Below, piece by piece: positions 1 to 38,400 of a stretch of DNA of 52,701 nucleotides. The notes below the pieces were generated by a model. It was not told where the DNA came from, searched no databases, and was given only the letters and a program-made list of their open reading frames with translations. Each line of letters begins with the position of its first letter. Positions within the stretch are counted from its first letter, which is position 1. This DNA comes from a virus (taxonomy: Duplodnaviria; Caudoviricetes), in the IMG/VR virus record IMGVR_UViG_3300023210_000044, positions 1 to 52,701 of that record; one strand, 5' to 3'. The translations under genes were made by a program, and so were the position numbers.

Positions 1-241
1 TGTCGATGTCCTTATTGCTATCCAGAAAGTGGACTGCCTCGCTGATGGTGAGTCCCGAAGCGTGTTTACCGTTTATCCGCAGGTTGATAAGCAGTGAGTC
101 TGCTGATCCATGATCGAACGAATTGGCGATTTTGCCAATGCTTAGTATCATGGATGCTGCGGCTTCATTGCTGTATGCTGTTTCGCAATGAACATCGTCA
201 AAGTCTGGTCTACGCACCGTGACGCTAACTTCATAGAACAT
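1..241 (-). CDS. Array cassette ORF, hypothetical, runs off the left edge (MFYEVSVTVRRPDFDDVHC...SNKDID)
   Basis: Not in the ORF track. ATG at 241 follows the repeat SD (AAAGGAACCAACATG), and the frame is open for 80 codons to position 1. Confidence 0.8.
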   Translation of the reverse strand, partial: MFYEVSVTVRRPDFDDVHCETAYSNEAAASMILSIGKIANSFDHGSADSLLINLRINGKHASGLTISEAVHFLDSNKDID

Positions 242-245
242 GTTG

Positions 246-307
246 GTTCCTTTCAAAGAACGCAGGTTATTGAAAAACTCTGCTGATCAATTAAGACCAG
301 CAGAGCG
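246..307 (-). repeat. 62-bp cassette repeat copy 1 (28-bp palindromic core 278-305, T-tract, SD)
   Basis: gttcctttcaaagaacgcaggttattgaaaaactctgctgatcaattaagaccagcagagcg; six near-identical copies in the window. Confidence 0.97.
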
Positions 308-309
308 AG

Positions 310-519
310 TTATTTGACCGATACAACAAGGCCGTCTTTCAATTGAGCCTCGGCATACCATGTGTGTGGTGCAGGATAATGCGGCCCTTCCAATGTGGTG
401 TAGCCATCGGTCGGCTCATTACCGCCAAATGGGCCGATTTGAAAGATCCGCACCGCCTCACCCTCTTTGATTGCTCTTTTGAGTGCCGCTTTGCTTTTGA
501 AGTTTGTAGTGGTGTACAT
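310..519 (-). CDS. Array cassette ORF, hypothetical 69 aa
   Basis: ATG lies directly after the repeat SD and the stop lies 2 nt before the next repeat. Confidence 0.85.
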   Translation of the reverse strand: MYTTTNFKSKAALKRAIKEGEAVRIFQIGPFGGNEPTDGYTTLEGPHYPAPHTWYAEAQLKDGLVVSVK

Positions 520-522
520 TTT

Positions 523-584
523 GTTCCTTTCAAAGAACGCAGGTTATTGAAAAACTCTGCTGATCAATTAAGACCAGCAGAGCG
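523..584 (-). repeat. 62-bp cassette repeat copy 2
   Basis: Identical to copy 1. Confidence 0.97.
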
Positions 585-591
585 GTGTGGT

Positions 592-843
592 TTATCCGAT
601 CAATCGTTCAAGTTCAGCGACGAATGCTTTCCCACCTTTCTCATTGATTGCTTCAAGAATCTTACGGGCTTTTGATTTGCCAAAGCGAAACGGCAATTTT
701 TTCGGATCGCCGATTGTCATCAACTCATGACCATTGCCTTTGATGTATGTCACACATTCCAACTCCGATTTCAGTTCCGATGCCTCCATCTTGAATGCTT
801 TTTTGGTTGACGATTTCTTGACGGTGGTTTTGCTAGCTGCCAT
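592..843 (-). CDS. Basic small protein, paralog of 2323-2571; possibly nucleic-acid binding
   Basis: Lys-rich N-terminus; the C-terminal ~65 aa are nearly identical to 2323-2571; SD GAAAGG upstream. Confidence 0.85.
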   Translation of the reverse strand: MAASKTTVKKSSTKKAFKMEASELKSELECVTYIKGNGHELMTIGDPKKLPFRFGKSKARKILEAINEKGGKAFVAELERLIG

Positions 844-1000
844 GGTGGTAGCCTTTCTCGGTCGTTTTGACCGTTTTGGTTTTGGCCGTTGCTGGCCGGT
901 TTGTTGAATCTCTCTGTCCTATCAAAGCGAAGCAACTAGGACAGAAGATTCAATTAAACAAGAGAAGAAAAGACTAAGATCTTATTGAACCTAAAGGTCT
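844..1000 (-). promoter_or_regulatory. Structured leader B (long hairpin 899-959 plus two small hairpins)
   Basis: gtttgttgaatct..ctgtccta pairs with taggacaga..agattcaattaaac; homologous to 2572-2770. Confidence 0.6.
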
Positions 1001-1031
1001 GAATGGCCGTCAAGCCACCCAGACCATGTGT

Positions 1032-1301
1032 TTACTTACGTTTTGACTCTTGAGCATCCTTCATGTCGATGATGTGAGTTGGATCACCGTCATTGATGTC
1101 AGACCACACGATGATTCTCACTTCATCCTCATGCTTTTCGATCAAGATAGGGAAGCCAAAGCCATCTTCAGCCGCCGCTTCACCATGACCCTCGGGACAG
1201 ATGTAAATGCCCTGATTGTCTAGGCTGATTTTCACCTTGATTGCCGTTTTGTCTGATGGTAGGTCAGCCAAGTCCAGTATTGTGTGAACTATTTCTTCCA
1301 T
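1032..1301 (-). CDS. Array cassette ORF, hypothetical 89 aa
   Basis: ATG immediately follows the SD of repeat 3. Confidence 0.85.
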   Translation of the reverse strand: MEEIVHTILDLADLPSDKTAIKVKISLDNQGIYICPEGHGEAAAEDGFGFPILIEKHEDEVRIIVWSDINDGDPTHIIDMKDAQESKRK

Positions 1302-1304
1302 TTT

Positions 1305-1366
1305 GTTCCTTTCAAAGAACGCGGGTTATTGAAAAACTCTGCTGATCAATTAAGACCAGCAGAGCG
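1305..1366 (-). repeat. 62-bp cassette repeat copy 3
   Basis: One substitution versus copy 1 (gcgggtt); core invariant. Confidence 0.97.
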
Positions 1367-1372
1367 TTGTGG

Positions 1373-1663
1373 TTACTCTAATTCGCCAAGTACTTCATCC
1401 AGCTTTTCGCCAAGACAGTCAAGACACCAAGGGCAATTGTCTTCATGATCAATCTGGTCATGGCATTCATCGCATTCACCATCAATAAGATAGCTTTCCG
1501 AGACTGGGATGTAGACAGTACCCAGATCGGCTCCATCTTGACTTAGTTTGTCTTGAATAGCTTGATCCAAAGCTTGCATTGTTAGGTCAATAGCGACCCA
1601 ATCAGATCCATTGCTATTTCCAACACTATTTTCCGCCGCCATTTCGGGGCTTAAAGTGAGCAT
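1373..1663 (-). CDS. Array cassette ORF, very acidic 96 aa with CxxC..CxxC (possible Zn binding)
   Basis: ATG follows the repeat SD; motifs CDEC and CPWCLDC. Confidence 0.8.
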   Translation of the reverse strand: MLTLSPEMAAENSVGNSNGSDWVAIDLTMQALDQAIQDKLSQDGADLGTVYIPVSESYLIDGECDECHDQIDHEDNCPWCLDCLGEKLDEVLGELE

Positions 1664-1666
1664 TTT

Positions 1667-1728
1667 GTTCCTTTCAAAGAACGCGGGTTATTGAAAAACT
1701 CTGCTGATCAATTAAGACCAGCAGAGCG
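1667..1728 (-). repeat. 62-bp cassette repeat copy 4
   Basis: Identical to copy 3. Confidence 0.97.
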
Positions 1729-1734
1729 GTGTGG

Positions 1735-1992
1735 TTACCGATCCATGTCGGCAGTCATCAATTCAAGAATCTTTTTTTGAATACGTTTTTTGGCCCAGCG
1801 GATTTCCTCTTCGGCTTCATCAAGGCAAAATACTGCATCTGTCAGTTGAGATCGATCCTTGACCATCTCCCAAATACATGCATCATCATGCATTTCGGTG
1901 TCGATTCTAATTTGGCCCAGATACTCAACTGCCTTATCAACGCGATTCTTAATTGATGCAATGCCGATAACTTGGTCACATTCGTCATACAT
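1735..1992 (-). CDS. Array cassette ORF, helical hypothetical 85 aa
   Basis: ATG follows the repeat SD; ends GAT CGG TAA ccacaccg. Confidence 0.8.
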   Translation of the reverse strand: MYDECDQVIGIASIKNRVDKAVEYLGQIRIDTEMHDDACIWEMVKDRSQLTDAVFCLDEAEEEIRWAKKRIQKKILELMTADMDR

Positions 1993-1997
1993 GATTT

Positions 1998-2059
1998 GTT
2001 CCTTTCAAAGAACGCGGGTTATTGAAAAACTCTGCTGATCAATTAAGACCAGCAGAGCG
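1998..2059 (-). repeat. 62-bp cassette repeat copy 5
   Basis: Identical to copy 3. Confidence 0.97.
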
Positions 2060-2065
2060 GTGTGG

Positions 2066-2248
2066 TTACCGATCAGGGCGACGACGACGAGCTGTCTTTC
2101 TTGTCTTAGTTGAATCACTGATCTTTATTTGATCACTGGTCGCCGACAGTGTTTGGCGAATCGCATCATGGATAATCGTACGTCTTTCCATGAATGTCTC
2201 TAATGATAATACGTTTCGTTTTTGTTGAGCCGTGATGTGTAATCGCAT
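2066..2248 (-). CDS. Array cassette ORF, basic hypothetical 60 aa
   Basis: ATG follows the repeat SD; ends GAT CGG TAA ccacaccg. Confidence 0.7.
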   Translation of the reverse strand: MRLHITAQQKRNVLSLETFMERRTIIHDAIRQTLSATSDQIKISDSTKTRKTARRRRPDR

Positions 2249-2253
2249 CTTTT

Positions 2254-2315
2254 GTTCCTTTCAAAGAACGTGTGTTATTGAAAAACTCTGCTGATCAATT
2301 AAGACCAGCAGAGCG
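2254..2315 (-). repeat. 62-bp cassette repeat copy 6
   Basis: Core invariant; the linker reads gtgtgtt. Confidence 0.97.
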
Positions 2316-2322
2316 TCATGGT

Positions 2323-2571
2323 TTATCCGATCAATCGTTCAAGTTCAGCGACGAATGCTTTCCCACCTTTCTCATTGATTGCTTCAAGAATCTTACGGGC
2401 TTTTGATTTGCCAAAGCGGAAAGGGAGTTTTTTCGGATCGCCGATCGTCATCAATTCATGACCATTGCCTTTGATGTATGTCACACATTTCAGCTCCGAT
2501 TTCAGAGCGGATGCTTCCATCTTGAATGCTTTTTTGGTCGTTTTCTTCGATGCTTTTTTGGTTGCTGCCAT
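2323..2571 (-). CDS. Basic small protein, paralog of 592-843
   Basis: Start set at ATG 2571 (MAATKK) by alignment with the paralog. Confidence 0.85.
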   Translation of the reverse strand: MAATKKASKKTTKKAFKMEASALKSELKCVTYIKGNGHELMTIGDPKKLPFRFGKSKARKILEAINEKGGKAFVAELERLIG

Positions 2572-2770
2572 GGTAGTGACTCGCTTTCTGGTCGTTTTGA
2601 CCAAGTGGTTGGTGGCCGTTGCTGGCCGATTTTGGGTCGTCCTGTCTTCTAAAACCTTTCTGTCTTTCTAAATCTCTCAATCCCCCACAAAGAAAGACGG
2701 AGGCTTTGGGAGTCATTCGGGGGATTGAAGATTTCTAAAGACTAAGAAAGTTTTAAGACAGGAAGATCTT
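2572..2770 (-). promoter_or_regulatory. Structured leader A with ~120-nt imperfect hairpin (2641-2762)
   Basis: cctgtctt..aaaac..ctttct..gtcttt..aaatct..tcaatcccc pairs with ggggattga..agattt..aaagac..agaaag..ttttaagacagg. Confidence 0.65.
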
Positions 2771-2935
2771 TTAGGATTGAAGAATGAAGAAAGAATGATC
2801 TTTTTGAAGATTTTGATGCGTGTGCGATTATACATCGAAACTAGGGCCAAAAAACGGTGTAAAACGGGCACATATGATCGCGTGTTTGACACTTTGCTAT
2901 TGACAACGGCCCAAATCGCTGTCTAAACTAGTCTT

Positions 2936-3385
2936 ATGCTTGATTCACCTACGCGACAAAGCGGCGAAAATGTCAGGGCAAACTGCAATGTTGTCTCTAA
3001 TGACTCATTCAGCGCGTCTTCGGATAAAAACAACTCTGGAGATAGCACTATAAGAGGCAGAATAAGAGGTGGTCGTCGAGTTTCGGAGCATTTGTGTGAT
3101 CAGCTAGAACTAAATGAAGCTGATGTGAGGAAAATCGCCGTAAATGCTGATTTGACGATAGCGGAAAGGATGGCAGCAAAATGGGCACTTCGTTGTCTTA
3201 CTGATGATACAACGAGAGGTGGCATTCCTTTGGCGTCTTATGATATCGACAGGCTGATGGATCGAACTGTTGGCCGTCCTAGTCAGCAAGTAAACATCAC
3301 GGAAGAACACAAGACAGTCAATGTGATCAATCTAACTCGCGAGGCTCTTGACGATGCCAAGGAAGCGCTGACCATCGACATATAG
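2936..3385 (+). CDS. Putative terminase small subunit-like protein
   Basis: C-terminal IDRLMDRTVGRPSQQV resembles the 'LLDRxxGKPxQ' motif of terS/DUF5681-type proteins; TTGACA-18-TAAACT at 2900-2929 upstream. Confidence 0.55.
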   Translation: MLDSPTRQSGENVRANCNVVSNDSFSASSDKNNSGDSTIRGRIRGGRRVSEHLCDQLELNEADVRKIAVNADLTIAERMAAKWALRCLTDDTTRGGIPLASYDIDRLMDRTVGRPSQQVNITEEHKTVNVINLTREALDDAKEALTIDI

Positions 3386-3638
3386 TCACGGTTCTCTCTA
3401 TACCCCGCGTTAACGCACAATAGAGTCACGGTTTTGTTTAGAAGCGTGATTGATCGAATTGCCCCTCAAGATGTGTGTGTTAACGCGTGTATCTTGGCGG
3501 CTCACCATCCTGACCCGCCTCTCAGATCGGGCAACGGATCCGTAAGGATAACGCAACTATATTCCACACAACATATTTCAAAACATTGACTGCCGTTAAC
3601 AGGCTTTTATTTTATTTTCAAAAACTCACCCCAACCCC

Positions 3639-3667
3639 TTGACTGCCGTTGGCAGGTATGGTAAGAT
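3639..3667 (+). promoter_or_regulatory. Sigma70-like promoter with palindromic operator
   Basis: TTGACT-17-TAAGAT with CTGCC-gtt-GGCAG overlapping the -35/spacer; a degenerate copy starts at 3586. Confidence 0.75.
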
Positions 3668-3673
3668 AACGAT

Positions 3674-3913
3674 ATGGCACTTGACAGCAACAACAAAAGT
3701 TTCAAAGAGCTGATGGACAAGGCTATTGAGGAAAGCATCCCTACCCCGGAAGAGTTCTGGGGCATAATCGGTTCGTCACCGCAGTTCCTTGGCACGGCCC
3801 CTCAGGACCGCGAGCTTCTCGCCGAGCTCCTTGGCACCAAGGAGCTTCGTTACAAGTTCGAGATTTCGTCAACGGGCGGCTTAACCATTACGGATAGAGG
3901 GCCACGATCATGA
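3674..3913 (+). CDS. Hypothetical protein
   Basis: Follows the promoter; ATGA overlap with the next gene. Confidence 0.7.
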   Translation: MALDSNNKSFKELMDKAIEESIPTPEEFWGIIGSSPQFLGTAPQDRELLAELLGTKELRYKFEISSTGGLTITDRGPRS

Positions 3914-4188
3914 CGCGTTCAGACATCCCCGACGAGATCAGCACCCGTGCCTTTGACAAGGGTGAATACGTCACCGCCGAAACCAAGGAGGAGACGGATG
4001 ACTGGCACGACCAGATGCAGGGCCTTCAGGATATTAGTGATGTGCCTTTGTTCTTGCGTGACCGCGACCAGCTTGAAGAATTGCCAGCCTCTGCGGCGGG
4101 TCGCGCGATGATGGCTGAAGACGAGTTCTTTAATAAGAAGCCAAGTTTATGGCAGAAGGTAAAGCGATGGGTGACTGGGAGTATATAA
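3910..4188 (+). CDS. Hypothetical protein
   Basis: Coupled to the previous ORF. Confidence 0.7.
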   Translation: MTRSDIPDEISTRAFDKGEYVTAETKEETDDWHDQMQGLQDISDVPLFLRDRDQLEELPASAAGRAMMAEDEFFNKKPSLWQKVKRWVTGSI

Positions 4189-4427
4189 GAACAGGATTCG
4201 GCGACGACGCCGAGAACTTGCATTGCGGCGACTGTAAGGTTGCTTGGACTGGGCCACCTCGTTGTCCAGAGTGCGGCAAGGCAAATGAGTATAATGAGCG
4301 GACCCTCGATCACGAGGCGTACGTTAATGGCGTGTTTCTTCCTGTTGTTCAGGAGGTATTTGAAGACACGTTTTCGGTAATTGATTCCCCTAAATGTTTG
4401 GAGCATCCAGATGGCGACGACAGTTAA
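4149..4427 (+). CDS. Zinc-ribbon protein (start possibly 4167)
   Basis: CGDC...CPECG motifs. Confidence 0.65.
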   Translation: MAEGKAMGDWEYIRTGFGDDAENLHCGDCKVAWTGPPRCPECGKANEYNERTLDHEAYVNGVFLPVVQEVFEDTFSVIDSPKCLEHPDGDDS

Positions 4428-4791
4428 AATTGGTGACAGTTTAAAGTTTCATTTGAACGAGCAGGAGATTCATGGTTTTAAAACCTTCGGCGAGCCCGGC
4501 ACTGACGGTCCTCACGAGGCGGAGGTTGTGGCTGTTGTGGGGGATGGTGGGCATGTGGATGTCGAGGCGATTGATAGCAGGGGCAACAAGCACCGCATCA
4601 ACAACCTTCCAGTGAGTCCAGCCAAGTCAGGGCAATCTTTTGTTACAGGTTGCGAGGCAGTTACCGAAGTGGAAAAGCCACTTGGGACAGCCACATCAGA
4701 AGAGTCATCCACTACCTTGGATGGCTCTGCCGCCGTAGATGACATCGTTTCTAACGATCCCTCGGATGGTACTTTAGAAACATCGGATTAA
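4411..4791 (+). CDS. Hypothetical protein (beta-rich N-terminal domain, acidic tail)
   Basis: GGAG SD before ATG 4411. Confidence 0.7.
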   Translation: MATTVKIGDSLKFHLNEQEIHGFKTFGEPGTDGPHEAEVVAVVGDGGHVDVEAIDSRGNKHRINNLPVSPAKSGQSFVTGCEAVTEVEKPLGTATSEESSTTLDGSAAVDDIVSNDPSDGTLETSD

Positions 4792-4795
4792 CCAA

Positions 4796-5075
4796 GCCCC
4801 CGGTAGCCGGATCGTCGGGGTTCCCTCGGCGGTTCGGTTTCGCCCGCTGTGATCCGACGTTGATCTACCCTGCCCCACAAAGGCACTTTGATGGGATGGG
4901 ATCTGCAGAGCGTCGGGGAGTGGGCACTAACTTGTCGGTGCGGATTCATATTCGCCGCTTGTATAATGACGCAGGCTCTTGCCATAACCTTCAGCGAAAG
5001 CTGACCGTTGCCAGCAAGAGCAGGTGCTCCTTTAACCTCCGCATGATGGGGGTCGTGTACAAGGATCATGGCTGA
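4796..5075 (+). ncRNA. Candidate structured ncRNA (strand uncertain)
   Basis: No convincing ORF; several nested stems, including tcagc-GAAA-gctga inside gctcttgc/gcaagagc. Confidence 0.4.
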
Positions 5076-5103
5076 TTTTTTAACGTATTCTCTTTCTCCT
5101 CCG

Positions 5104-5143
5104 GCCTCCACCGTTTTTCTAGGCGGTGGAGGCTTTTTCTTTT
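5104..5143 (+). terminator. Intrinsic terminator between convergent operons
   Basis: gcctccaccg/cggtggaggc 10-bp stem followed by tttttctttt. Confidence 0.8.
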
Positions 5144-5325
5144 GGCATTCCGAGGTAGATGGTATGCCCCCGGGTGAACATACTTGCTGCTGCGGGTACT
5201 CCTATGGCGATGTACCCACCGCCATGGCGGTCCATGTAGAACAGGTCGCTCCCGCAGAGTGCTAGTTGGAGCCGCCGCTTTAGCGATGCGTTCTCGGCTT
5301 GCAGCGTTGCTAATAATTCATTCAT
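5119..5325 (-). CDS. Hypothetical protein
   Basis: TAATG overlap with the thermonuclease stop. Confidence 0.6.
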   Translation of the reverse strand: MNELLATLQAENASLKRRLQLALCGSDLFYMDRHGGGYIAIGVPAAASMFTRGHTIYLGMPKEKASTA

Positions 5326-5669
5326 TACAAATACTCCGTGGCGTGTCCTTTGCGGATCAAGTGCTTGTTAACATCGGTTCTGTCGTGATAAATCGTTGCT
5401 AACCAGCGACCATACTTGCCTTTTCCGTGCGTCCTAACCAGCACTTCTTTATGTAAGATCAAACTTCGCAAATAGTCTCTTGCTTCGTAGGCTCTTTTCT
5501 TAACGTCGCCGTGAGTGCCGCGCAACTCAGGTGTATCAATACCCTTGAGTCTTAGTTTGGCTGATTTAAGAATGATACCGAAACCAATGTCCAAGTCGCA
5601 AGTCACAGTGTCTCCATCATATACTCTTGTGATCATACCCACGTTAAGTCTTGTTGGTTGGCGACTCAT
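5325..5669 (-). CDS. Thermonuclease (staphylococcal nuclease family)
   Basis: RVYDGDT, RLKGIDTPE, GKYGRWLA and NKHLIRKGHA motifs. Confidence 0.92.
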   Translation of the reverse strand: MSRQPTRLNVGMITRVYDGDTVTCDLDIGFGIILKSAKLRLKGIDTPELRGTHGDVKKRAYEARDYLRSLILHKEVLVRTHGKGKYGRWLATIYHDRTDVNKHLIRKGHATEYL

Positions 5670-5866
5670 AGTCTCTCCAATGCATCAATGCCATCTTGGA
5701 TCTTCTGGCTGTAGCCCTTCAGTTCTTTGATGTGTTTCCTGCGTTCGTCGTCAATGTTCTTGCTGTCGCGGGTCTGGGACGCGAGCACGCCATTGATGAT
5801 ACCCCTGCTGATTAGCAGTGCGTGGCTTACTGTTTCACGGTTGGTCATTTCCATAATTATTTCCAT
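5666..5866 (-). CDS. Hypothetical helical protein
   Basis: Overlaps both neighbouring genes in the operon. Confidence 0.65.
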   Translation of the reverse strand: MEIIMEMTNRETVSHALLISRGIINGVLASQTRDSKNIDDERRKHIKELKGYSQKIQDGIDALERL

Positions 5867-6441
5867 TCTCTGCTGCCGATTCGCTCAATGCGTTCGGCGG
5901 GGTTAAGGTGATTAACGTACGTGTTGGTCGTTGCAATGTTACTATGCCCCAGTTGCTGCGAGATCATATGGAGCGGGACGTTTTCGTTCACGAGCTCATA
6001 GGCATGGGAGTGTCTCAGCCCGTGAGCATGGACACGATGTTCGATACCAGCTCTTTTCCCTATTCGCTTTAACATGTGTCTCACGTATGATGTATCGAGA
6101 GGTGTTCCATGCAAAGTGCAGAACAACAATCCCTTGGGCTTGACGGCGACCCACTGCTCGATGAAGACGAGGGTGCCTTGGTCTACAGCGACCACGCGAG
6201 ATTTGTCACCTTTACCGTGCCGTACAGTAATGGCTCCTCTCTTGGAGTCAATGTCTCGTGCAGCAAGGTTGAGGGCCTCGCTACAGCGTAGTCCACTGCG
6301 GTAAAGTAGGGCGATTAAGGCTCGGTTACGAAGTCCGGTAGCTCCACGACCCCGGGCTTTAAGAAGTGCTTCGACTTCCTTGGGCGTGCAGATGCCCTCA
6401 AGTGCAGGGTATTTTTTACCCTTGTTGGCTGGAATAACCAT
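5857..6441 (-). CDS. Tyrosine recombinase, catalytic domain only (194 aa)
   Basis: SGLRCSEAL (R), HGKGDKSR (K), HGLRH (HxxR), LGHSNIATTNTY (H, Y). Confidence 0.95.
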   Translation of the reverse strand: MVIPANKGKKYPALEGICTPKEVEALLKARGRGATGLRNRALIALLYRSGLRCSEALNLAARDIDSKRGAITVRHGKGDKSRVVAVDQGTLVFIEQWVAVKPKGLLFCTLHGTPLDTSYVRHMLKRIGKRAGIEHRVHAHGLRHSHAYELVNENVPLHMISQQLGHSNIATTNTYVNHLNPAERIERIGSREWK

Positions 6442-29459: not shown

Positions 29460-32400
29460 GTGGATCACATGGCAGAACAGACGCTAAATACAGGTTCGCA
29501 GCAGGACTGGCTCCGGTCTAACAATGTGCGTCCGCAGCAGCCTCAGCAGCAGCAGCAAGCTGACCCCAGCGAGGTTGGCATAGACCTGAACTCGGTGACC
29601 AACAAGCGTGATCATGCCCTTGATCGCGATTGGCAAACGCTGGCCGACAGCACGCAGCAGAAGGGTCGCACTGCAAGGTTCAATGATCCTGAACTAAGAG
29701 AAACAATCTTGGGCTTTCGTGGCAAGACAGTCCGTCTCGCCGAGAAAGAACTTAAGCGTCATGACAACATCGTGGATCAGGGATATGAAGCAAGCGTAGA
29801 GCCGGGCGTGTATGTGACGGACGCGGGTAGAAAAGAGTGGGAGTACAAGAACGAAATTAAAAGAGGCTGGTTGCAAGCGGGTATCGGTCTGCTCAAAGAA
29901 CAAGATCCATACCGCCAGCACTTGAAGCTGGACGACGAGCTTGAGGACGACGACCTGCTGGGATTGCCAGAAAAGAAAAAGTCGCAGCTAACACAAAAGA
30001 CGACGGGCAAGTTTGAGGATGTGGAATGGGAAGAGGAGGAAGATGAAGACGAGAAGAACCTGTTTAACCAAAACATGACAGGCCGTGAATATGTAGTCGG
30101 GCACGGCATGCGTAGTGGCCCCACCTCGACGACTCGCCAGACAAGAGCGGCGTTGAAAAAGGTGGCAGAAGAGCATGGCGAAAAAGGAACTGAAGAGTAC
30201 TACAAGCTTGCTGGTGAAATCCCCGGCATGGCCGAGATCAATGGCGTTAAAAAGCTAAAGATGAACGACCAGCCGGTCTTAAGAAAGCCCGAGCCTGAAG
30301 GCTATCAGGTCCAAGCGAAGTACGAACGGAACGACAATGCGAGGCAGGGTTCGACTGCAATAAAAATCCGTGACGCCTATTGGCAGCCCGACGAAGATGC
30401 TGCCAAGCGAAACCGTGCTCACGAAAAGCGATACGCATTGCAGATGGGGCGATGGCTGTACGGCCAGAGCTTTGTCGCGTCAGCAAAGACGGCGATGCTT
30501 CAAGGCGACATTAAAAAAGCCAGAGCATACATGGAAGTTGCGCGGGCAGTGAACCATTTGCAAGATGGGTTCCATGCTGATTCAGGTAGCCCGAGGGTAC
30601 AGAGCGTAGTTAACGCGATCGGTGCGGACGCAATGGAGAAGAAGGCGTGGATGTTGTACCACGGCACCGTGGACGACGAAGGCAAGATGACCGCCGATGG
30701 GTACAAGCAGAAGACTGAAGAGTTTGATCGCGAGAACCGTGACCGCGTAGGCCAGATGACGGACGGCGAAGACAGGATGCATTCGATTAAGCGTGCGATT
30801 TACTCGTTCGCTCAGGTGTTCCCTGAGGGATATGCCGCTGCATTGGAATCAGCTGATCAGATATTGCAGCATTACTTTAACACTGGCAATAATTGGTCGG
30901 CGGAAGAGTCCGCGATGTACAACGCGCTTGGTGGGTCTTGGCTATCCAAGCAGCAGGGTAAGTTGGACCAGAGCGCAAACGCTGGCGACTTCTACGTAGA
31001 TCAAGTCCCAGCTATGGTCGGCGCACAGCTGGCGTTCTTGGCGTCAGGTGGTATCGCTGGGAAGCTTAGCAAGGGACTGAAGCTCGGCTTGCAACATAGC
31101 AAACTCCTTCAATCAGTAGCGATGGGCACGGCTGGTTCCGGCATGTCGTACAAGTCCATCAGGGACGAATGCATTGCCATGGGTGGCACGCAACAAGAGG
31201 CTGAGGGCATGGTCATCTGGGGCGTGCTGTCTGGTATGACTGAGGCTGTTCCGCTGGCCGTCAAGTACAAGGGCATGGGCAATCTGACGGAAGCGATCGC
31301 AGGCATGGGCAAGGGGTTCAAACGAACTCTGCTTAGCCGCATCAAAAGTGCGGGTACAGTTGCTGCGATAGAGATCCCGAAGATCTTTTCAGAGACCGTT
31401 GAAGAATGGGGCCAAGAAGGTATCCAGCAGTGGATCCACAATGTGGGTGCATCGACAGTCTACGATGTCATGCGTCAGCTTGACGAAGGTGTGAAGGAAT
31501 CAGCAGCTATGGGTGCGTTGTTCGGTGGTGTGTTCCAAGGTCTCCACTCCGGTGCCCATGTCGGTGTCACCGCGTTCATGAACCAGAGGATCAAGTCGCC
31601 AGACGACACACAAATAACTAACGAGATCCTTGCTTACATGCACGGTGGGCAAGAGGCTGTTGATGCGATGCGGAAAGCGGGAATGTCTGATGGTGATATT
31701 TACTCGACGCCCCCCGGGGAGGCCGCCAAGGCCGCGTCCGATTCCGCAAGAGCCGCAAGAAAACAACTCAGGGCATTAGAGGATGATGTTGCAGCTAAGG
31801 ATCAGGCTAAACAGGACGCGATGAGCGAACTGCAAGATGGTGATGCAAACGAATCTACACCTGAGTCAAAGGCGAGGTATCAAAACTTTAAAGCAGCGGA
31901 AGCTTCTGCGAACGAGGCTCGTGCCAAGCACAATGAGGCCAAAGCTGCGCCGCAGAAGGCTGTCGATGAAGCCGAGGCCAAGCTTAAAGAAACAAAGGAA
32001 GCAGCAGAAAAAGATCCCCGCCATGCAGCGGTGGTTCAGGCGTTCGACACTGCATCCAACGAGGTGGATGCCCTTGAGAAAGAGATCGCTACCGCAGAGA
32101 AGACGAGGAACTTTAACAAGGGTGGCGACACCAAGGCGTTGGATAAAAAGCTAAAGGATCTTTACGGCAAGCGAGATGATGCCCAGTCCCGTAAGGATGC
32201 TGCGGAGAAGATAAGCAAAGAGTTCCTTGAGCATGCAACCAAGCCCGCTAAGGCTGAGGTGGCAAAAGCTAATGACGCATTGGCTCGTGCTGAAGCACTT
32301 ACCAGAGGGAAGAGTATTGACGACCTCGTCAAGCCCAAGAGCAAGCAGCCAGCAGGATTGAAACGCAACAAAGACCTGAACGATGCTGGCAAGGAGTACG

Positions 32401-35400
32401 GCGGTTCATCCACAACTGTAACACCAACGCGGACAGGTACTGGTGGGCAGACAACGCAAGCTGCCAAGGCCGACAAGGCTAAGGATAAGGCGATCAATGA
32501 TGCTGCTGCTGCCAAGCAGACGGTAGAGGAAGCTGCTGCGGAAACAGAGAGGCTACGGCTAGCTGCCCATGCCGCAGTGGACGCGTTAGAGCAAGAAGAT
32601 GTGGATGCGGACGAAGACGCATACACCGCTGCATATGACGCCGCACAAGAGGCAGTGGACGCACAAAATGCTGCCCGTGACCTAGAGGCGGTCATGAGGA
32701 ATAACGCCCAAACCAAGGGGCGTGTCGAGGGCAGCCAACAGAAGGGTGACAAGCGAACCAAGGCTCGCAAGCTCAGCGACATCGTAGCTGATGTTGACCC
32801 GCTGTCGTACCTGCGAAAGGATAGCGAGAAGGCCAGCGACCAAGAAGAAGATTACGACGTGGACCTTGGTGAGACCGAGACTGAAGCTCCCATCACCATA
32901 GACACCTCGATTAAAGTGGCATTGGCAAAGTCCCAACTAGCTGCTGCAGAAAAAGCGTTCGCTGATGCGGTGGGCGAGAATGATATCAACGCGGCTGAAA
33001 AAGCACTCAACGATGCTGAGTCCGCACTTGCTGCGGCTGAGGCGGCTCACGATAAGGCGAATCCTACTGAGTATGTAGACACAGATACAGGGGAAACGAT
33101 CGAGATCAAATCAAAAGCAAGCAATGGTTGGCTCATTGTTCGTAATGGAAAAACTGAGTTGGTGAAAGACCTCAACTACATGACGCGAGGTGAGTACGAA
33201 GCGAACAAGAAGCAAGAAGCTGATGAAGCAGCGATGGAAGAAGCGAAGCAAAAGAAAGAGGACGAGCTGGCAGAGAATGACATTGAGGTGTTGTGGTACG
33301 ACGACGAGAAGGGTGTCATGTTTGTTAAGCACCCTCCTACCAAGAAGAACCCAGATGGCAAGATTGAAGAGATGCCCAATGTCTTTGCCGACAAGCCACG
33401 CACGCAGTCTAAGTTTACTCGCGGCGAACTGAAGCGAGCGAAGAAAGCATACGACCAACTCAAAGAAGAAAACGCAACGCGACAAACTGAAGAAGAGTTC
33501 AACGCTGCCAAGGCCAAGTCGGGTGCGACTGCTGCACGTCAGGCTGAGCTGGAACGATTCAAGAAGTTCATGGAGAAGGCGATACTCGCCTTCCTGCCCA
33601 AGGGATCGAAGTACAACGCAGACGATCGGGTCGTTACCTTGCCCAACGGTAAGACGTTCGATGTCGAGTACTCGCTGGAAGAGGATCTCATCAACGGCAT
33701 CTCTGGAATTATCTCAACCCCCGGCAGTGACCTCAGCTCGCTTATCGCTTCGATCTATGGCCAGAACAGCAGGGCTGATTTAGATCTGGCGAAACTTCCT
33801 CTTACCAGTGAGGAGTTTAGCAAGCTGCCTGACGAGGAGCAGCGATCCAAACTGATGCGACTGTTCGGTCCTAATGGTGCGGGCGGTAGGACTGGTGGTC
33901 ACTGGGACGGAGCGAAAGTAACCACGATCACTACAGCGGATGGGGCGAAGACTGTCCTTACTGGCCGGTTGTATACCGCACTGCCTGTAGGTAGCAGCAC
34001 GAACATCGCCGCCTTCGACAAAACCTTCGCCGTCCTCCGCGAAGAGATCGGTCACGCTGCAATACAACTGATGCCCATGAGTCAAAAAGACAGAAAGCGA
34101 ATGGGTAAGATCTACGGTAAGAAGGGCGTGTTTGACAAGGAGGCTGAAGAGGCATTCCTTGAGGACGCCGTCCGTTACCACGCAAGAGGCGTGCATGAAG
34201 GCGGCTTCCTCAAGAAAACATTCGACAAGATGTTCAGCATGGTTGAGACTTTGCTAAACATCGGTAGGCCGTCAGCACTGCGAGGCCGTGCAGCAACACG
34301 TATCGCGATGCGCAATCTATGGGGACCGTCACACTCTGAGCCTGCCAGCCAGCCTACCGTTGCCTCTTCCCTTGCTAATCAAGAGCAGGATCTGATTAAC
34401 CAAACGAAGCACAACATCAGGCTCAGCAAGGCAGAGCTGGACACGCTCAAGTTTGATGAAGATGACATGCTTGTGGGTGACGCGTCTCCCAAGGTCAAGA
34501 AAATACTTGATGAAGAGCGAAAAGATTTCATCGAACGTAACAAAAGCAAGGGACTGCAGGCACCTAACGACAGGCACTTGCTTGGTGCGGGCGGATTGTT
34601 TGGTGGTGCAGCTGGAATCAAAAGAAACTATGGGTCACCCACATCAATCGTTGCGGGTGACTTCCAGAAGGCACCGGGCGATCGCGCTAGGTTGAACCCT
34701 CTACTCAAAAAGCCCAGCTCGTTTACAGATGAGCAATGGGAAGCGAAGATCCAAGAAGTAGCGGACGAGCTGGACGCTAGGTACAACGTCGATCTTTCCT
34801 TAATGACATGGATGGTCGGGAACGTGCATACCCCGTTCTACGAGACAGCCCAAAAACTTGACAGTTCGGACGAGCCCGGTGGCAGGAACCGCATGAAGGA
34901 ACGTCTGGCGGATCTGATGCCCATGGTGTTCGATCCTGACTACTACATGAAGAGTGACCCGATGCCCGGCACGCCAGAGACAGGCATGTACAGGGAAGGG
35001 GGTGGCCTCTCTGGAACCTTAGACCTGATGGAAGTCATGACTCCTGATGTGAGGGACAAGTGGGTCACAAAACCTTGGTTTAATCCAAGCGGATCGGCCA
35101 AGATGTATGAGCCCGGTAGCGTTGAGCTTGAACCATCAAATGATTTTGATAGGTTCTCCAACAGGCTGTTGAAAGAATCTATCTTCACTATATTCCAGCA
35201 AGGTTTGCTGGCGGGGTCTGGACCATTTGAGAATGATTATCCGGGATTTCTGAAATCAATTAAGTTTGATTTGTCCAAATTTGTTTGGACAAATATAAAC
35301 AAGTTCCTTGATAGCCAAGGGACAGGTGCCTTTGGTAATGACTCTTACTTCCGCGTCATTGCCGAGATGAATGCCCACATGCCAGACCTTCTTAGGAAGG

Positions 35401-38400
35401 TCACTGGCGAAGATGATGCCAGCCGCGCTAAGTTGCTGCTGCAATTGACCAGAGGAAAGGGTGGTGCCCCCGCCCCTCTCGATTACTCCAATCCGTTGAA
35501 ATATATAGCGAATGCGGCGACGCCCATGCACCATCTGGGCAAGATTACAGGGAACGACAAGAAGAGCATAGGGCTAACGAGGTGGGAATCAGATAAGCAG
35601 AAGGAGATTGACAACCAGAAAGCACATGACAAGTCAGAGGCGATATTGCAAGCTGCGGCGAAGGAGAGGGTTGATGCTTGGATCCTCAAGGAGTCCGAGC
35701 TGATGACGCCACAGATGGAGAAGGATTTACTGCAGCGTAAGCCTGCCGAGGACGAGCAGGCTAGGGGCTGGTTCATGCCATGGTCAGTAAAGGTAGGGGA
35801 GTGGGTAAAAAGTGCGCCGACCGATGGGCCTGATGGCGACCTCGCTGTATCAAAATGGGAGAGGGTGACTGAGACCATCAGAACAGGGTGGGATGAAGAT
35901 GCTCAAGAGTCAATATGGAATATCCGCACGAACGTAACCGACCAGCTCTTAAAAGAGACAGGTACAGACTATTCGTACGAAGGGATACCGTCAGAGCTGA
36001 ATGAAATGCTAAGTATGCCTGTCACGGTGTACTCGCCAGCGTCCGAAGAATATCTTGCCACCGCAGCGAAAGAGCTGGAGAGAAAATACAGGAAGCGGGC
36101 AGAGCAGATGGGCATCCCGTTCTCCTCTTTCATGCACGGCTTGATGTACAAGTTCGTATCGAACGTAGACACCACGAGCAGTGAGTTCCTCGATGGTTTC
36201 TACGGGCGGAACAATCCGCTGACTGACGAGAACGGTGAAGCCACCGTGATGTACCGAGGCGAAGAGGAAAAGGGCGTCGCCCTCCCTCGTGTGGACTTTA
36301 GGAATGCTCCTCAAGGTATGATTTTCTTGACGAACCGCGTCACGAAAGCGGCGACCTACACGCGTGAGTACTACGACAGAGGTTTGGATCCTAAAGATGC
36401 GATAGGTCCGCAGGCTGAAGTCCATATCTATCCCGAAGGCCACCGCTATGCTGGACAGCGGGAGAAGCATTCGATGGAGTGGTTCGCGAATGATCCCGGC
36501 AAACGAATACTTCAGTTTGACGAAGATACGAAGGAGATGCTTGATCCTAATTTTGAGTTCAATCGAGGCCAGATCCTGCCCATGTATATCGGGTGGAAAA
36601 GACCATTGATAATAGAGGCTGCTGGTGCTGACTACAGTCAAGTCCCCACCCCTGAGATATTCTTCCACCAGAGGATCACCGAGAAAGAATACAAGGAGCT
36701 TGAAAAAGCTGCTAAGTTTAACCACGGCTACGATGCGAAACCTATGGGCGGGTCAGAGTATCTCATGTCCCGAGAGAAACCCGGTCATGAATCCATGGGC
36801 ACTGACGACGTGCTCAGGATGCTGGTCATGTACAACAATCTTCAGACATCAGAGGATGCAAAGTACGACGGCGTTCTTATCAACAACCTAGTAGACGAGA
36901 TGCATGCTGGCTGGTCTCAGCCAGCTCAGGTTGCAATTGTCCCTGTAGAGTATGCCAAGAACTTGAAGTCCGCTTCAGGCAACACGACCTTCGACAAAGA
37001 GACGACCCACCCTGATCACACCCTGTACAACATCCGCCTACCTGAAGCTGTCAGTGAACTTGAATACGTCAGTGAACTTGGCGGGTCCACGGGTGCGATA
37101 CTCATGGAAGATGACGAGGGCAAGAAGTACGTCGTCAAGCGAGGCAATAGCTACGAGCATGTTGAAGACGAGTACGCCGCCGAGGTCATGTACCGCGAAG
37201 CCGGTATCCAAGTGCCGCCATCTACCCTCGTGTATGACGACGAGGGCCCAGCGAAGATCTCGCTTTACCTTGGTAACACGAGGGAGATTGGTCGCCTCTA
37301 CGGTGACGAACTTGCGAAGGCAAGGAAGGCTGTTCAAAGCAACATGGCAGCTGACGCACTGTTTGCCAACTGGGACGTTGTAGGTATGGGCGGTGACAAC
37401 ATCCTTGTCGATACAGAAGGCACGCCATGGCGTGTGGATGTCGGCGGATCGCTACGCTACCGTGCCCAAGGTGGGCCTAAGGGTGAGATGTTCGGCGATG
37501 TTCCCGGGGAGCTTAGATCCCTACGTGAGATGAACGAATGGTTTAGCGACATGACTGACGCTGATGTCATCAAGTCACTGGACAAACTGATGGCCCGCCG
37601 CGAAGTGATCCTCGACTCGATCGAAGACCCCGACGTCCGCGAAGTCATGGCCCAACGATTCAAGAATGCCGGTGATGTGGTTGGCAAGAAATACAACATC
37701 GACTTAAGCCACAAGAAGGAAGCCTTTGGTGGTGTCCTCATGAACAGTGACGGCAAGGTCTTGCTCCGCGAACCCTCCAACCACTTCGGTGGCTACGCTT
37801 GGACCTTCCCCAAGGGCCGTCGCGATCCCGGTGAGACGCCAGAGCAGGCAGCACTCCGCGAAGTCAAAGAAGAGACAGGCTACGACGCCAAGATTGTCGG
37901 CACGATCGAGAAGGGCTTTGAAGGCGATACCACGGTGACGAAGTTCTTCAAGATGGAAGTCGTCGGCGAGCAGGGTGAGACAGACTGGGAGACCAACGCG
38001 ACAGGTTGGTTCACGATTGATGAAGCCAAGGCCAAGATAGGCGAGTCACCTAACGAGGCTGGTCGCGACCGTGACCATGACATCTTGAACCATGCGTACG
38101 GCAAGGGCGATGCCAAGTACAACGTCGATCTCGGTATTCGTGTGCCAGCCAGCTTGCGAGGTCAAGAGACGATGGCGACCAACCCATATGTAAGCGTGCC
38201 TGTTGTTGCTATCCCCAAGGATCGGCCTGATCAATTTGTATCCTACCTGCGGGCTGCTCAATCACACTCGGCGAACACGCCAAAGGGCTTCGAGGGTATA
38301 TCCGCGTTGAGATTCATGGCCCTTAAGGAGGGCGGCTGGGTGGTATGGGATTATGAGAATGGAGACCATGATGATGTTGCTGGCTCCAGAGAACATAAGG

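Follow-up and report, generated by a model that had tools for sequence, protein, structure and literature searches.

Promoter-early stem-loop (PeSL) cassettes have been described in T4-like phages (PMC2839356, PMC4122927). According to one of these reports, they are composite motifs that run from a stop codon to an ATG and combine a terminator stem-loop with a Shine-Dalgarno (SD) sequence; they flank ORFans and mediate insertions and deletions via homologous recombination (PMC2839356). An array that resembles these cassettes is carried by a marine phage outside the T4 group, with an SU10-like portal match, a giant polyvalent protein, and occurrence in marine metagenomes as signs of its lineage. 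The window, i.e., the whole stretch of 52.7 kb that was analyzed, is a linear fragment with an estimated completeness of 73%, and metagenome contigs of the same phage show that the array runs on past its left end by ~3.5 kb. The window was compared with one distant relative that has an array (L010) and with L066, L067, and L068, three short contigs from this phage; together, these provide a very small sample of swap events.

[quoted passage not shown] Homologous recombination is the proposed mechanism in both cases. In contrast to the PeSLs described there, the module has no strong sigma-70-like early promoter (best match 7/12, as in shuffled sequences), it is found in another phage lineage, and its copies are far more uniform. 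We consider it probable that the repeats are stop-hairpin-RBS modules, i.e., terminator- or attenuator-like RNA elements that also provide portable homology, comparable to PeSLs devoid of a recognizable sigma-70 promoter and shuffled by homologous recombination.

The genes and the functional strand of the repeats are on the minus strand (Table 1). The first-pass annotation had described six direct repeats of 62 nt with an invariant core of 28 nt, consisting of 11-nt arms with one mismatch around a 6-nt center, and all of this was recovered. The opening 14-mer of the 62-mer is found exactly at 246, 523, 1305, 1667, 1998, and 2254, and the core occurs six times, each time without mismatch and on the plus strand. 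Even when three mismatches were allowed, the 52.7-kb window contained no further match, and none of 100 shuffled sequences contained any. The direct repeats are near-identical over 62-80 nt and show 84-100% identity across 80 nt, copies 4 and 5 being 100% identical over this length. Each unit begins precisely with the TAA of the upstream gene, ends with the ATG of the downstream one, and comprises, in the order of the minus strand, TAA, a 12-bp hairpin, UUUUU, a spacer of ~11 nt, the SD within a weak 6-bp hairpin, and ATG. The ATG follows 3-5 nt past GGAAC in each repeat, and the repeat is, in every copy, the only source of an SD for its downstream gene, which bears out the earlier proposal that each repeat supplies the SD for a small, unrelated ORF. 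Seven copies are near-perfectly identical, in the loop as well as in the 31-nt SD half, which exceeds what a terminator plus an SD would need.

Table 1. Location of the array features and of the recombinase gene in the window.
Feature	Position	Strand	Description
Module copy 1 (ORF B/ORF A junction)	243..322	-	Hairpin 277-306; U5, SD, ATG
Module copy 2 (ORF C/ORF B junction)	520..599	-	Hairpin 554-583
Module copy 3 (ORF E/ORF D junction)	1302..1381	-	Hairpin 1336-1365
Module copy 4 (ORF F/ORF E junction)	1664..1743	-	Hairpin 1698-1727
Module copy 5 (ORF G/ORF F junction)	1995..2074	-	Hairpin 2029-2058
Module copy 6 (ORF H/ORF G junction)	2251..2330	-	Hairpin 2285-2314
ORF A	2-241	-	Cut by window end; no family match
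ORF B	310-519	-	69 aa; widespread small-protein family, function not known
ORF C	592-843	-	83 aa; Lys-rich N-terminus; first gene after leader
Unit boundary	844..1031	-	Hairpin type d (996-1025, terminator-like), then conserved leader with long hairpin
ORF D	1032-1301	-	89 aa, acidic; no family match
ORF E	1373-1663	-	96 aa; C-terminal CxxC...CxxC module
ORF F	1735-1992	-	85 aa; missing from contig L068
ORF G	2066-2248	-	60 aa; truncated form of 89-aa G' (L068)
ORF H	2323-2571	-	82 aa; first gene of leftward unit
Leader and divergent control region	2572..2935	-	Promoter matches
Xer-like tyrosine recombinase	5857-6441	-	194 aa; Phage_integrase domain, E 1e-41 (Pfam)

All six copies were called terminator-like on the minus strand, with 12 pairs (6 G-C), a 6-nt loop, and the tail TTTTCAATAA. 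The first 4,000 positions contain 13 terminator-like sites, vs. 4.2 ± 2.1 in shuffled sequences. For the 80-nt unit, the folding energy of the minus strand is -27.2 kcal/mol (z -5.0), vs. -25.3 kcal/mol (z -3.2) for the plus strand. The single mismatch between the arms can pair as G.U on the coding strand but not on the other one. When 11 hairpin elements were considered (types a and d from the window, types b, c, c2, and d2 from L067, and five from L010), 26 G.U pairs were counted on the coding strand vs. 3 on the other one, and the coding-strand fold was the more stable in each of them, by 3.6-9.2 kcal/mol. Covariation was assessed in ten of these elements, type c2 being left out because it is nearly identical to c. 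In this set, 11 of the 13 stem pairs are changed on both sides, and 93.1% of the cells are paired vs. 65.7 ± 3.0 in shuffles, the observed value being reached in none of 500; with the partners slid, paired cells drop to 28-52%. On the coding strand, every hairpin has a T-run behind it, in which the TTT next to the stem does not vary among the ten elements. Since the G.U pairs are largely confined to the coding strand, the stems covary, and the T-run is invariant, the sequences point to a terminator- or attenuator-like RNA element rather than to a double-stranded recombinase site. Covariation alone is also compatible with a folded site in single-stranded DNA.

The hairpins are similar to intrinsic terminators in their G+C-containing stem of 11-13 bp, their loop of 4-7 nt (the range in the other array elements), the U-run immediately downstream of the stem on the sense strand, and their position just past the stop codon; furthermore, the stem covaries while the U-run stays. 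The pattern of the outer stem matched eight unrelated sites, i.e., six in bacterial genomes and two in metagenomes (L069 and L070), all of them single-copy hairpins with a T-run; since the search pattern itself required the T-run, these look-alikes weigh little. Unlike an intrinsic terminator, the hairpin of the array recurs in near-identical form after nearly every gene of the operon and forms one unit with a fixed ribosome-binding module.

A survey of ~6.1 kb in the window and L067 yielded 15 gene junctions, seven with type a, one with type b, two with type c, two with type d, one with the leader only, one with the SD half only, and one bare. A hairpin with a U-run is present just past the stop codon at 12 of them and absent from the other three, and four hairpin types occupy equivalent positions in one array. 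In L010, diverged homologous modules are found at the same positions, and their hairpins differ among themselves in both arms by compensatory changes.

Relatives had been expected to carry different ORFs between the repeats, and near-identical metagenome genomes do differ by gain, loss, or replacement of whole ORFs adjacent to the repeats, with flanks that are 96-100% identical between contigs. A 63-aa ORF in L066 replaces a 147-aa ORF of L067; the identity ends at the ATG on one side, in a hairpin-less module, and starts again on the other side at the TAA. L067 has an extra module with a 44-aa ORF, and L068 is devoid of ORF F and one repeat and contains the longer G'. Between the window and L068, one breakpoint falls into gene G, on the outer boundary of copy 5 (2074/2075), and 96 nt are specific for L068. 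This change is not a plain repeat-for-repeat exchange. Mini-circles that arise by exchange between flanking motifs are a feature of PeSL cassettes; in the assembled contigs examined here, three joints are accounted for by paralogous copies that lie to the left of the window.

The description of the array as a cassette-like series of unrelated small ORFs is supported, and the repeat-led ORFs show no mutual similarity in blastp searches. None of the eight ORFs A-H matched a Pfam or PHROG family at a significant E-value. The full-length product of ORF A has 125 aa (L067 474-851), and the CxxC...CxxC module of ORF E is shared with G' of L068. ORF B belongs to a family of 242 proteins and is present in 25 other viral contigs, none of which has this module. 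ORFs C and H are paralogues (97% identity over 67 aa in blastp) and are preceded by a distinct leader (copies at 2572-2790 and at L067 1954-2067 and 3917-4083) instead of the repeat; beyond each other, no relatives and no family were detected for them. With 242 relatives for ORF B and only its own paralogue for H/C, the cassettes appear to be of mixed origin.

Within the module, the best sigma-70 match is 7/12 (three copies), and 1931 of 2000 shuffles scored equally well or better. A promoter scan found nothing wholly within the repeats, and one match, at 1315-1288, borrows its -10 from gene sequence. Elsewhere in the window, four sites look like genuine promoters, with scores of 10-11/12. In the control region, the best leftward match is merely 8/12 (TTTTTT-16-TATAAT), and TTGACA-18-TAAACT is found rightward at 2900-2929. 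Efficient termination is hard to square with 12 terminator-like hairpins in ~6 kb that have no recognizable promoter after them. It must be assumed that expression past them depends on partial read-through, antitermination, or an unrecognized phage-specific promoter.

The first-pass annotation had mentioned an RNA element with PeSL-like homologous recombination only as an alternative, but this reading fits the evidence best. Each repeat would constitute a complete standard intergenic module in a leftward operon of small accessory genes. In the mRNA, the hairpin and the U-run most likely function as a factor-independent terminator or attenuator, a role suggested by their sequence; the hairpin could also be a protective 3' hairpin and would dose and insulate each small gene, while the second half of the module would set translation initiation. 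Unrelated ORFs are flanked by identical stretches of 60-80 nt, so that the modules may double as portable homology. Homologous recombination between modules, whether in the same genome, in co-infecting relatives, or in other copies, would insert, delete, or replace ORFs at stop and start codons, and the same process would keep the copies homogenized. The exchange is presumably homologous rather than site-specific.

A reading in which the hairpin serves chiefly for recognition or processing of the mRNA, as the target of a phage antiterminator or translational regulator or as a site for nuclease processing and stabilization, with the U-run being secondary, is rather unlikely. The RNase III sites between the early genes of T7 are a precedent for processing and stabilization, but a 12-bp stem is short for this enzyme. 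The Lys-rich H/C protein, which is duplicated and always encoded first in its unit, behind the leader, is a candidate regulator, and the invariance of loop and flanks in seven copies goes beyond the needs of a terminator. Also, the ORFs downstream of hairpins without a following promoter are intact and have good SDs. However, four hairpin sequences with their loops occur at equivalent junctions in one genome, and the hairpins of L010 vary freely, which makes sequence-specific recognition less likely. The feature common to all hairpins is the U-run, and the candidate regulator lacks any detectable family.

The first-pass annotation had favored a dif/lox-like site for a nearby tyrosine recombinase. 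That this enzyme is catalytically intact is supported by its Pfam domain and by alignment. Tyrosine recombinases depend on the catalytic residues R-K-H-R-H/W-Y, all of which were found in the aligned protein. Its motifs RxxE, GKGxK, HxxR, GH, and Y align with solved Xer proteins (4a8e, 5hxy). The enzyme consists of the catalytic domain only, the N-terminal DNA-binding domain being missing. This domain is closest to XerA, XerC, and XerD, but the profiles were matched just from about position 91 onward and below the cut-offs of these full-length, two-domain families (141.5 vs. 220, 126.1 vs. 335, and 118 vs. 330 bits, respectively); indeed, the protein scores under every curated family cut-off. 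In size (~200 aa) and in the collinearity of residues 19-177 with positions 8-173 of the 198-position profile, it resembles the FimB/FimE invertases, but it scores 81.6 bits against a cut-off of 222, and no convincing inverted repeats bracketing a segment were found in the whole window (three weak pairs within 8 kb). Its gene belongs to another leftward operon, 3.2 kb away from the array, with a promoter at 6502-6474 (TTGACA-17-TATACT), and adjoins the terminase gene, a position conserved in relatives.

We regard it as very unlikely that the 28-bp element, as a duplex or as an attC-like folded strand, is the site at which this enzyme moves single-ORF cassettes. The 11-6-11 geometry, which is shared with dif and pdif sites by the type-a elements only, the direct orientation of six copies, the conserved Xer-like catalytic domain nearby, the different cassette content of near-identical genomes, and a covariation with G.T tolerance that a folded DNA strand would also allow are all in agreement with such a site. 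However, recombination leaves the bias in G.U pairs and the invariant T-run unexplained, both of which point to RNA. Equivalent junctions have other hairpin types or none, a module without hairpin flanks the replaced ORF on one side, and the breakpoints fall on the ATG, on the TAA, or inside gene G, not in the 6-nt center. The enzyme of L010 has been kept with 52% identity, and yet the hairpins vary there in both arms, so that, in contrast to dif, the arm sequence is not conserved. Relatives of the enzyme were found in 54 viral loci, whereas arrays occur solely in the kin of the window; no additional copy of the 28-mer is present near the recombinase gene, and no evidence linking this gene to the repeats was found. 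The sites of the array are direct, many, and heterogeneous, while pdif sites alternate in orientation. Like an integron, the array is one-directional and promoterless, its unrelated small ORFs are each followed by an imperfect palindrome, and its cassette content varies between close relatives. In attC sites, the palindrome has bulged bases and includes the recombination point. The array, in contrast, has clean hairpins with a U-run and boundaries at stop and start codons (L066/L067, window/L068), and an IntI-type integrase, which integrons encode beside attI and the first cassette, is lacking here, as the 194-aa enzyme, whose gene is not adjacent to the array, matched the integron integrase profile TIGR02249 in two pieces with 84.1 bits against a cut-off of 265. 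A new recombinase-driven cassette system is not supported by the finding.

A dual use of the hairpins, with a role in the mRNA and cutting and rejoining of the folded type-a strand by the catalytic-domain-only Xer-like recombinase, is highly improbable; if true, the array would be an integron-like cassette system of a phage, in which a minimal integrase acts on sites shaped like terminators. Also highly improbable is a selfish origin of the repeat as a small MITE- or REP-like insertion element that spread into intergenic gaps and affects regulation incidentally, as, for all its seven near-identical copies in a single region and its palindromic core with conserved flanks, every copy starts at a stop codon and ends at an ATG without variable flank or target duplication, provides the only SD of the downstream gene, has diverged homologues at the same positions in L010, and is found nowhere else in the window or the viral collection.

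As stop-hairpin-RBS modules, the repeats would represent a natural form of plug-and-play gene exchange in a non-T4 phage, in which a fixed adaptor allows swaps that are exact at codon boundaries. The PeSL principle, i.e., a regulatory motif that serves as portable homology, would then work in this lineage without a promoter in the motif, and it is a puzzle how an operon with a terminator-like hairpin behind almost every gene is expressed. For uncultured marine phages, the modules would offer handles on variable accessory genes, which possibly function in host takeover or anti-defense.

Six direct repeats, 84-100% identical across 80 nt, separate the small genes at the left end of the window. 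Read on the minus strand, which carries all of the small array ORFs A-H, each repeat constitutes the entire intergenic region, with the TAA of the upstream gene first and the AUG of the next gene last. The first part of this module comprises the TAA, the heptamer CCACACC, a hairpin (GCUCUGCUGGUC-UUAAUU-GAUCAGCAGAGU) and UUUUUC; the second part consists of ~11 nt, the motif UUCUUUGAAAGGAAC, in which the SD lies inside a 6-bp hairpin, a further 3-5 nt and the AUG. The repeats, their core and their positions, as described in the first-pass annotation, were all confirmed: the 28-mer core occurs six times, each time without mismatches and on the plus strand, and the 14-mer opening the 62-mer is exact at all six positions. 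No further copy of the 28-mer with up to three mismatches was found in the 52.7-kb window, a linear virus record of an estimated 73% completeness, and a match was present in none of 100 shuffles. At positions 2316-2318, the window reads TCA, where L068, a metagenome contig of the same phage, and all contigs from four seawater runs have GTG, which is the flank consensus of the other repeat copies; judged from this pattern, the difference looks like a conversion patch.

Repeat copies and small ORFs of the array in the window
Feature	Positions	Strand or reading	Basis
Repeat copies	243-322, 520-599, 1302-1381, 1664-1743, 1995-2074, 2251-2330	module read on minus strand	sequence comparison
ORF A	2-241 (window end cuts gene)	minus	
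ORF B	310-519	minus	
ORF C	592-843	minus	
ORF D	1032-1301	minus	
ORF E	1373-1663	minus	
ORF F	1735-1992	minus	
ORF G	2066-2248	minus	
ORF H	2323-2571	minus	

A pattern scan of metagenome contigs yielded three short contigs that belong to this phage, i.e., L067, which is 99.4% identical over window 1-714 and extends 3.5 kb farther left, L066, which adjoins the window start, and L068, which spans window 1629-3614. The other two matches (L069 and L070) show no similarity to the window. Together, the window and L067 contain 15 gene junctions across ~6.1 kb. Seven of these have a type-a hairpin, one has a type-b hairpin (GUUCUGGAUGGC...GCUGUCCAGAAC) with flanks as in type a, two have type c, and at the remaining two hairpin junctions a conserved leader follows a type-d hairpin. 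The three hairpin-less junctions consist of a leader only, a 30-nt SD half only and a bare 16-nt gap, respectively. Thus, the hairpin sequence is variable even inside one genome, and a hairpin with a U-run directly 3' of the stop codon is found at 12 of the 15 junctions. In the type-c repeat, with copies at L067:2684-2734 and 3425-3475 (98% identity across 51 nt), the hairpin is different and the layout stop-hairpin-U-run-SD unchanged. The conserved leader (~110-190 nt), present in four copies (window 844-995 and 2572-2790; L067:1954-2067 and 3961-4083), combines a long hairpin (TTGAATCTTCTGTC...GACAGAGAGATTCAA) with a GGCC-AGCAAC-GGCC motif. Every transcription unit seems to start with such a leader, ahead of its first gene; no convincing sigma-70 promoter was found inside it.

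The content of the array varies cassette-wise. Between L066 and L067, the flanks of which are 96-100% identical, a whole ORF has been replaced: 3' of the common ...UAACCCGCGUUCUUUGAAAGGAACAAAAUG, a 63-aa ORF is found in L066 and an unrelated 147-aa ORF in L067, and identity restarts at the TAA ahead of hairpin b. The left edge of this replacement is a hairpin-less module, and L067 contains an additional "SD half + 44-aa ORF" that is absent in L066. L068 and the window, with flanks of 97-100% identity, differ by 96 nt present only in L068 and 322 nt present only in the window. The order is E, repeat, G' (89 aa), repeat, H in L068 and E, repeat, F, repeat, G (60 aa), repeat, H in the window. G' (L068:109-378) carries at its C-terminus a CxxC...CxxC module akin to the one in E, and its final residues, ...ADMDR, are as in F; window G is truncated after RRRRP, at the outer repeat edge (2074/2075). 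The module common to E and G', CxxC...(P)WCxxCL, is zinc-ribbon-like and has been lost from window G, so that domains as well as whole genes are shuffled here. The swap breakpoints are located at an ATG, at a TAA or within a gene, and none demonstrably in the 6-nt centre of the core. The cassette array proposed in the first-pass annotation is thus partly borne out, in that near-identical contigs do differ by whole ORFs.

The assembled contigs of the four seawater runs end at the repeats, and none of them extends across the array. Three joints in them (989>1660, 1375>1 and 2068>1) were considered as circles or deletions and rejected as such, since the joints and loose ends match paralogous modules, leader copies and genes located left of the window according to L066 and L067. 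Gaps in cover (e.g., 1801-1920 in X4) carry no evidential weight. Among the runs listed for window 1-3000, none was of RNA.

Terminase-based searches led to nine related viral loci, and no TerL relatives were found in bacterial genomes. Only one of the nine, L010 (TerL 60% identity), extends far enough upstream, and it also has a leftward series of small ORFs, none of them related to those of the window. Its modules are homologous but diverged (stop, CCACAAC, 11-bp hairpin, 4-nt loop, AGUUUUUC, SD), and their stems vary between copies through paired changes. A blastn search of INPHARED phages with window 1-3000 gave no match, neither the exact 28-mer nor the exact SD half was found in viral contigs beyond the phage's own record, and the hairpin pattern matched only single-copy terminator-like sites in bacterial genomes.

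As judged from homologues, the array ORFs have different histories. ORF B (69 aa, without a Pfam family) has 242 relatives of roughly 50-75% identity on contigs of up to 140 kb, and none of 25 other viral contigs with a homologue contains the window module. The H/C protein found no match in Pfam, PHROG, Atlas and homologue searches, its sole relative being its own paralogue. One unrelated 51.8-kb viral contig with an ORF B homologue, L088, has an array of its own (1500-5350), in which eight intergenic modules of ~100 nt sit between small plus-strand ORFs. Each contains two hairpins and then an SD; compensatory variants occur in the stem of the first hairpin, and there is no U-run.

All six window repeats were scored terminator-like on the minus strand in a consensus scan, and positions 1-4000 contain 13 terminator-like sites vs. 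4.2 ± 2.1 in shuffles. Predicted folding energies of the unit are -27.2 kcal/mol (z -5.0) for the minus strand and -25.3 kcal/mol (z -3.2) for the plus strand. On the coding strand, the lone mismatch between the inverted arms forms a G.U pair, and on the opposite strand it is A.C. Across 11 hairpin elements (window a and d; b, c, c2 and d2 of L067; five of L010), 26 G.U pairs were counted on the coding strand vs. three on the opposite strand, and the coding-strand fold was the stabler one in all 11, by 3.6-9.2 kcal/mol. Ten of these elements were aligned for covariation, c2 being omitted as a near-duplicate of c. They form a 13-pair helix with changes on both sides in 11 of the 13 pairs. Paired cells amounted to 93.1% vs. 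65.7 ± 3.0 in column shuffles (0/500 reached the observed value), only 28-52% of cells were paired with slid partners, and the covariation score was 0.89 vs. 0.31. The TTT 3' of the stem is invariant in all ten. Strand-biased G.U pairs, covariation and the fixed T-run point to an RNA on the coding strand, since one-sided G.U pairs, changing stems and a one-sided T-run are all explained by a structure read at the transcript level. The outer-stem pattern had eight unrelated matches (six bacterial genomes, two metagenome contigs), all a single-copy hairpin followed by a T-run. They are ordinary terminator-like sites and lend weak support, because the search pattern already demanded the T-run. No Rfam family was found in 1-4000, only a chance miRNA match (E 0.45).

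Thus, the module is probably an RNA-level terminator or attenuator combined with an RBS, and at the same time portable homology for ORF-precise shuffling. The hairpin with its U-run would terminate or attenuate transcription, and the SD half would serve as RBS; identical modules would provide the homology between which ORFs are precisely swapped. That the hairpin of the transcript is an RNA recognition or processing site is rather unlikely.

Still less plausible is that the repeat is a recombinase site. A duplex site of one recombinase should hold its arm sequence, and a one-sided T-run or G.T is unexpected in it. Here, the arms are variable, the G.U pairs strand-specific (26 vs. 3) and the T-run fixed, no breakpoint demonstrably falls in the core centre, and one replacement edge lacks a hairpin. 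The recombinase itself is genuine: the product of ORF 5857-6441 is a catalytic domain of the tyrosine recombinase type (Pfam E 1e-41), and its catalytic motifs align with those of solved Xer proteins. It is nearest XerA, XerC and XerD, yet falls under every curated cut-off because there is nothing N-terminal of the catalytic domain, and it is collinear with a 198-aa FimB/E-type invertase profile. Its operon, which also includes a 66-aa ORF and the gene of an SNase-like nuclease, is separate from the array and is transcribed from a near-consensus promoter (6502-6474) divergent from TerL; a rightward operon (2936-5111) intervenes between the recombinase and the array. The head-to-head recombinase-TerL pair is kept in five of the nine TerL-related loci (L007, L008, L010, L071 and L072). 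No recombinase was found beside TerL within the 0.4-2.9 kb present in L073-L075, and L009 offers merely 80 nt of upstream sequence. Distant relatives of the recombinase were found at 54 viral loci. Two scans over 59 loci, two being the same contigs as two others, searched for repeated hairpin + T-run sites and for 14-mers occurring at least three times, respectively. Of the scanned loci, only the window and, in a diverged form, L010 showed cassette-spaced repeats. The proposed dif/lox-like role is unsupported. Alignment of five relatives revealed nothing conserved in the recombinase-TerL gap, an inverted-repeat search of the window gave only three weak pairs, and neither a candidate site nor an attachment site or an invertible segment emerged; the enzyme may act in integration, dimer resolution or inversion. 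Least credible of all is that the repeat is a selfish mini-element.

No sigma-70 promoter was found in the module, the best score of 7/12, in three copies, being reached by 1931 of 2000 shuffles. Elsewhere in the window, four sites score 10-11/12, and the host therefore probably reads the canonical consensus. The top leftward candidate upstream of H scores just 8/12. As many as four hairpins in a row precede some genes, which might be expressed through partial read-through, through antitermination or from a phage-specific promoter within the conserved 31-nt SD half. The proteins scanned, from a record that lacks 27% of the genome, showed no RNA polymerase. In N4-like phages, hairpin promoters are used by a virion RNA polymerase. 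Such promoters were considered here because of a giant ORF (29460-43541, 4693 aa) and rejected, as this ORF has ART-PolyVal (E 2.5e-27) and NUDIX (E 4e-19) domains instead and no RNA polymerase was seen. Its product is a giant polyvalent protein, a class whose members presumably enter the cell alongside the DNA.

In T4-like phages, PeSLs (promoter-early stem-loop cassettes) have been described as composites that occupy the whole interval between one gene's stop and the next gene's ATG and comprise a sigma-70 early promoter, a stem-loop for which termination was shown, and an SD (PMC2839356). They flank ORFans, and indels and mini-circles arise via homologous recombination (PMC2839356; PMC4122927). 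Like PeSLs, the window modules extend from stop to ATG, contain a terminator-like stem-loop and an SD, and flank ORFans at which close relatives differ; they have no sigma-70 promoter, and the phage lineage is a different one, with an SU10-like portal match, the polyvalent protein and an occurrence in seawater runs. Hence, the modules are classified as working like PeSLs without being members. A limited literature search, which does not prove absence, returned only the T4-like PeSL papers for such motifs and no description of a phage integron-like system. Hairpin spacers repeated between small phage genes may be commoner than reported.
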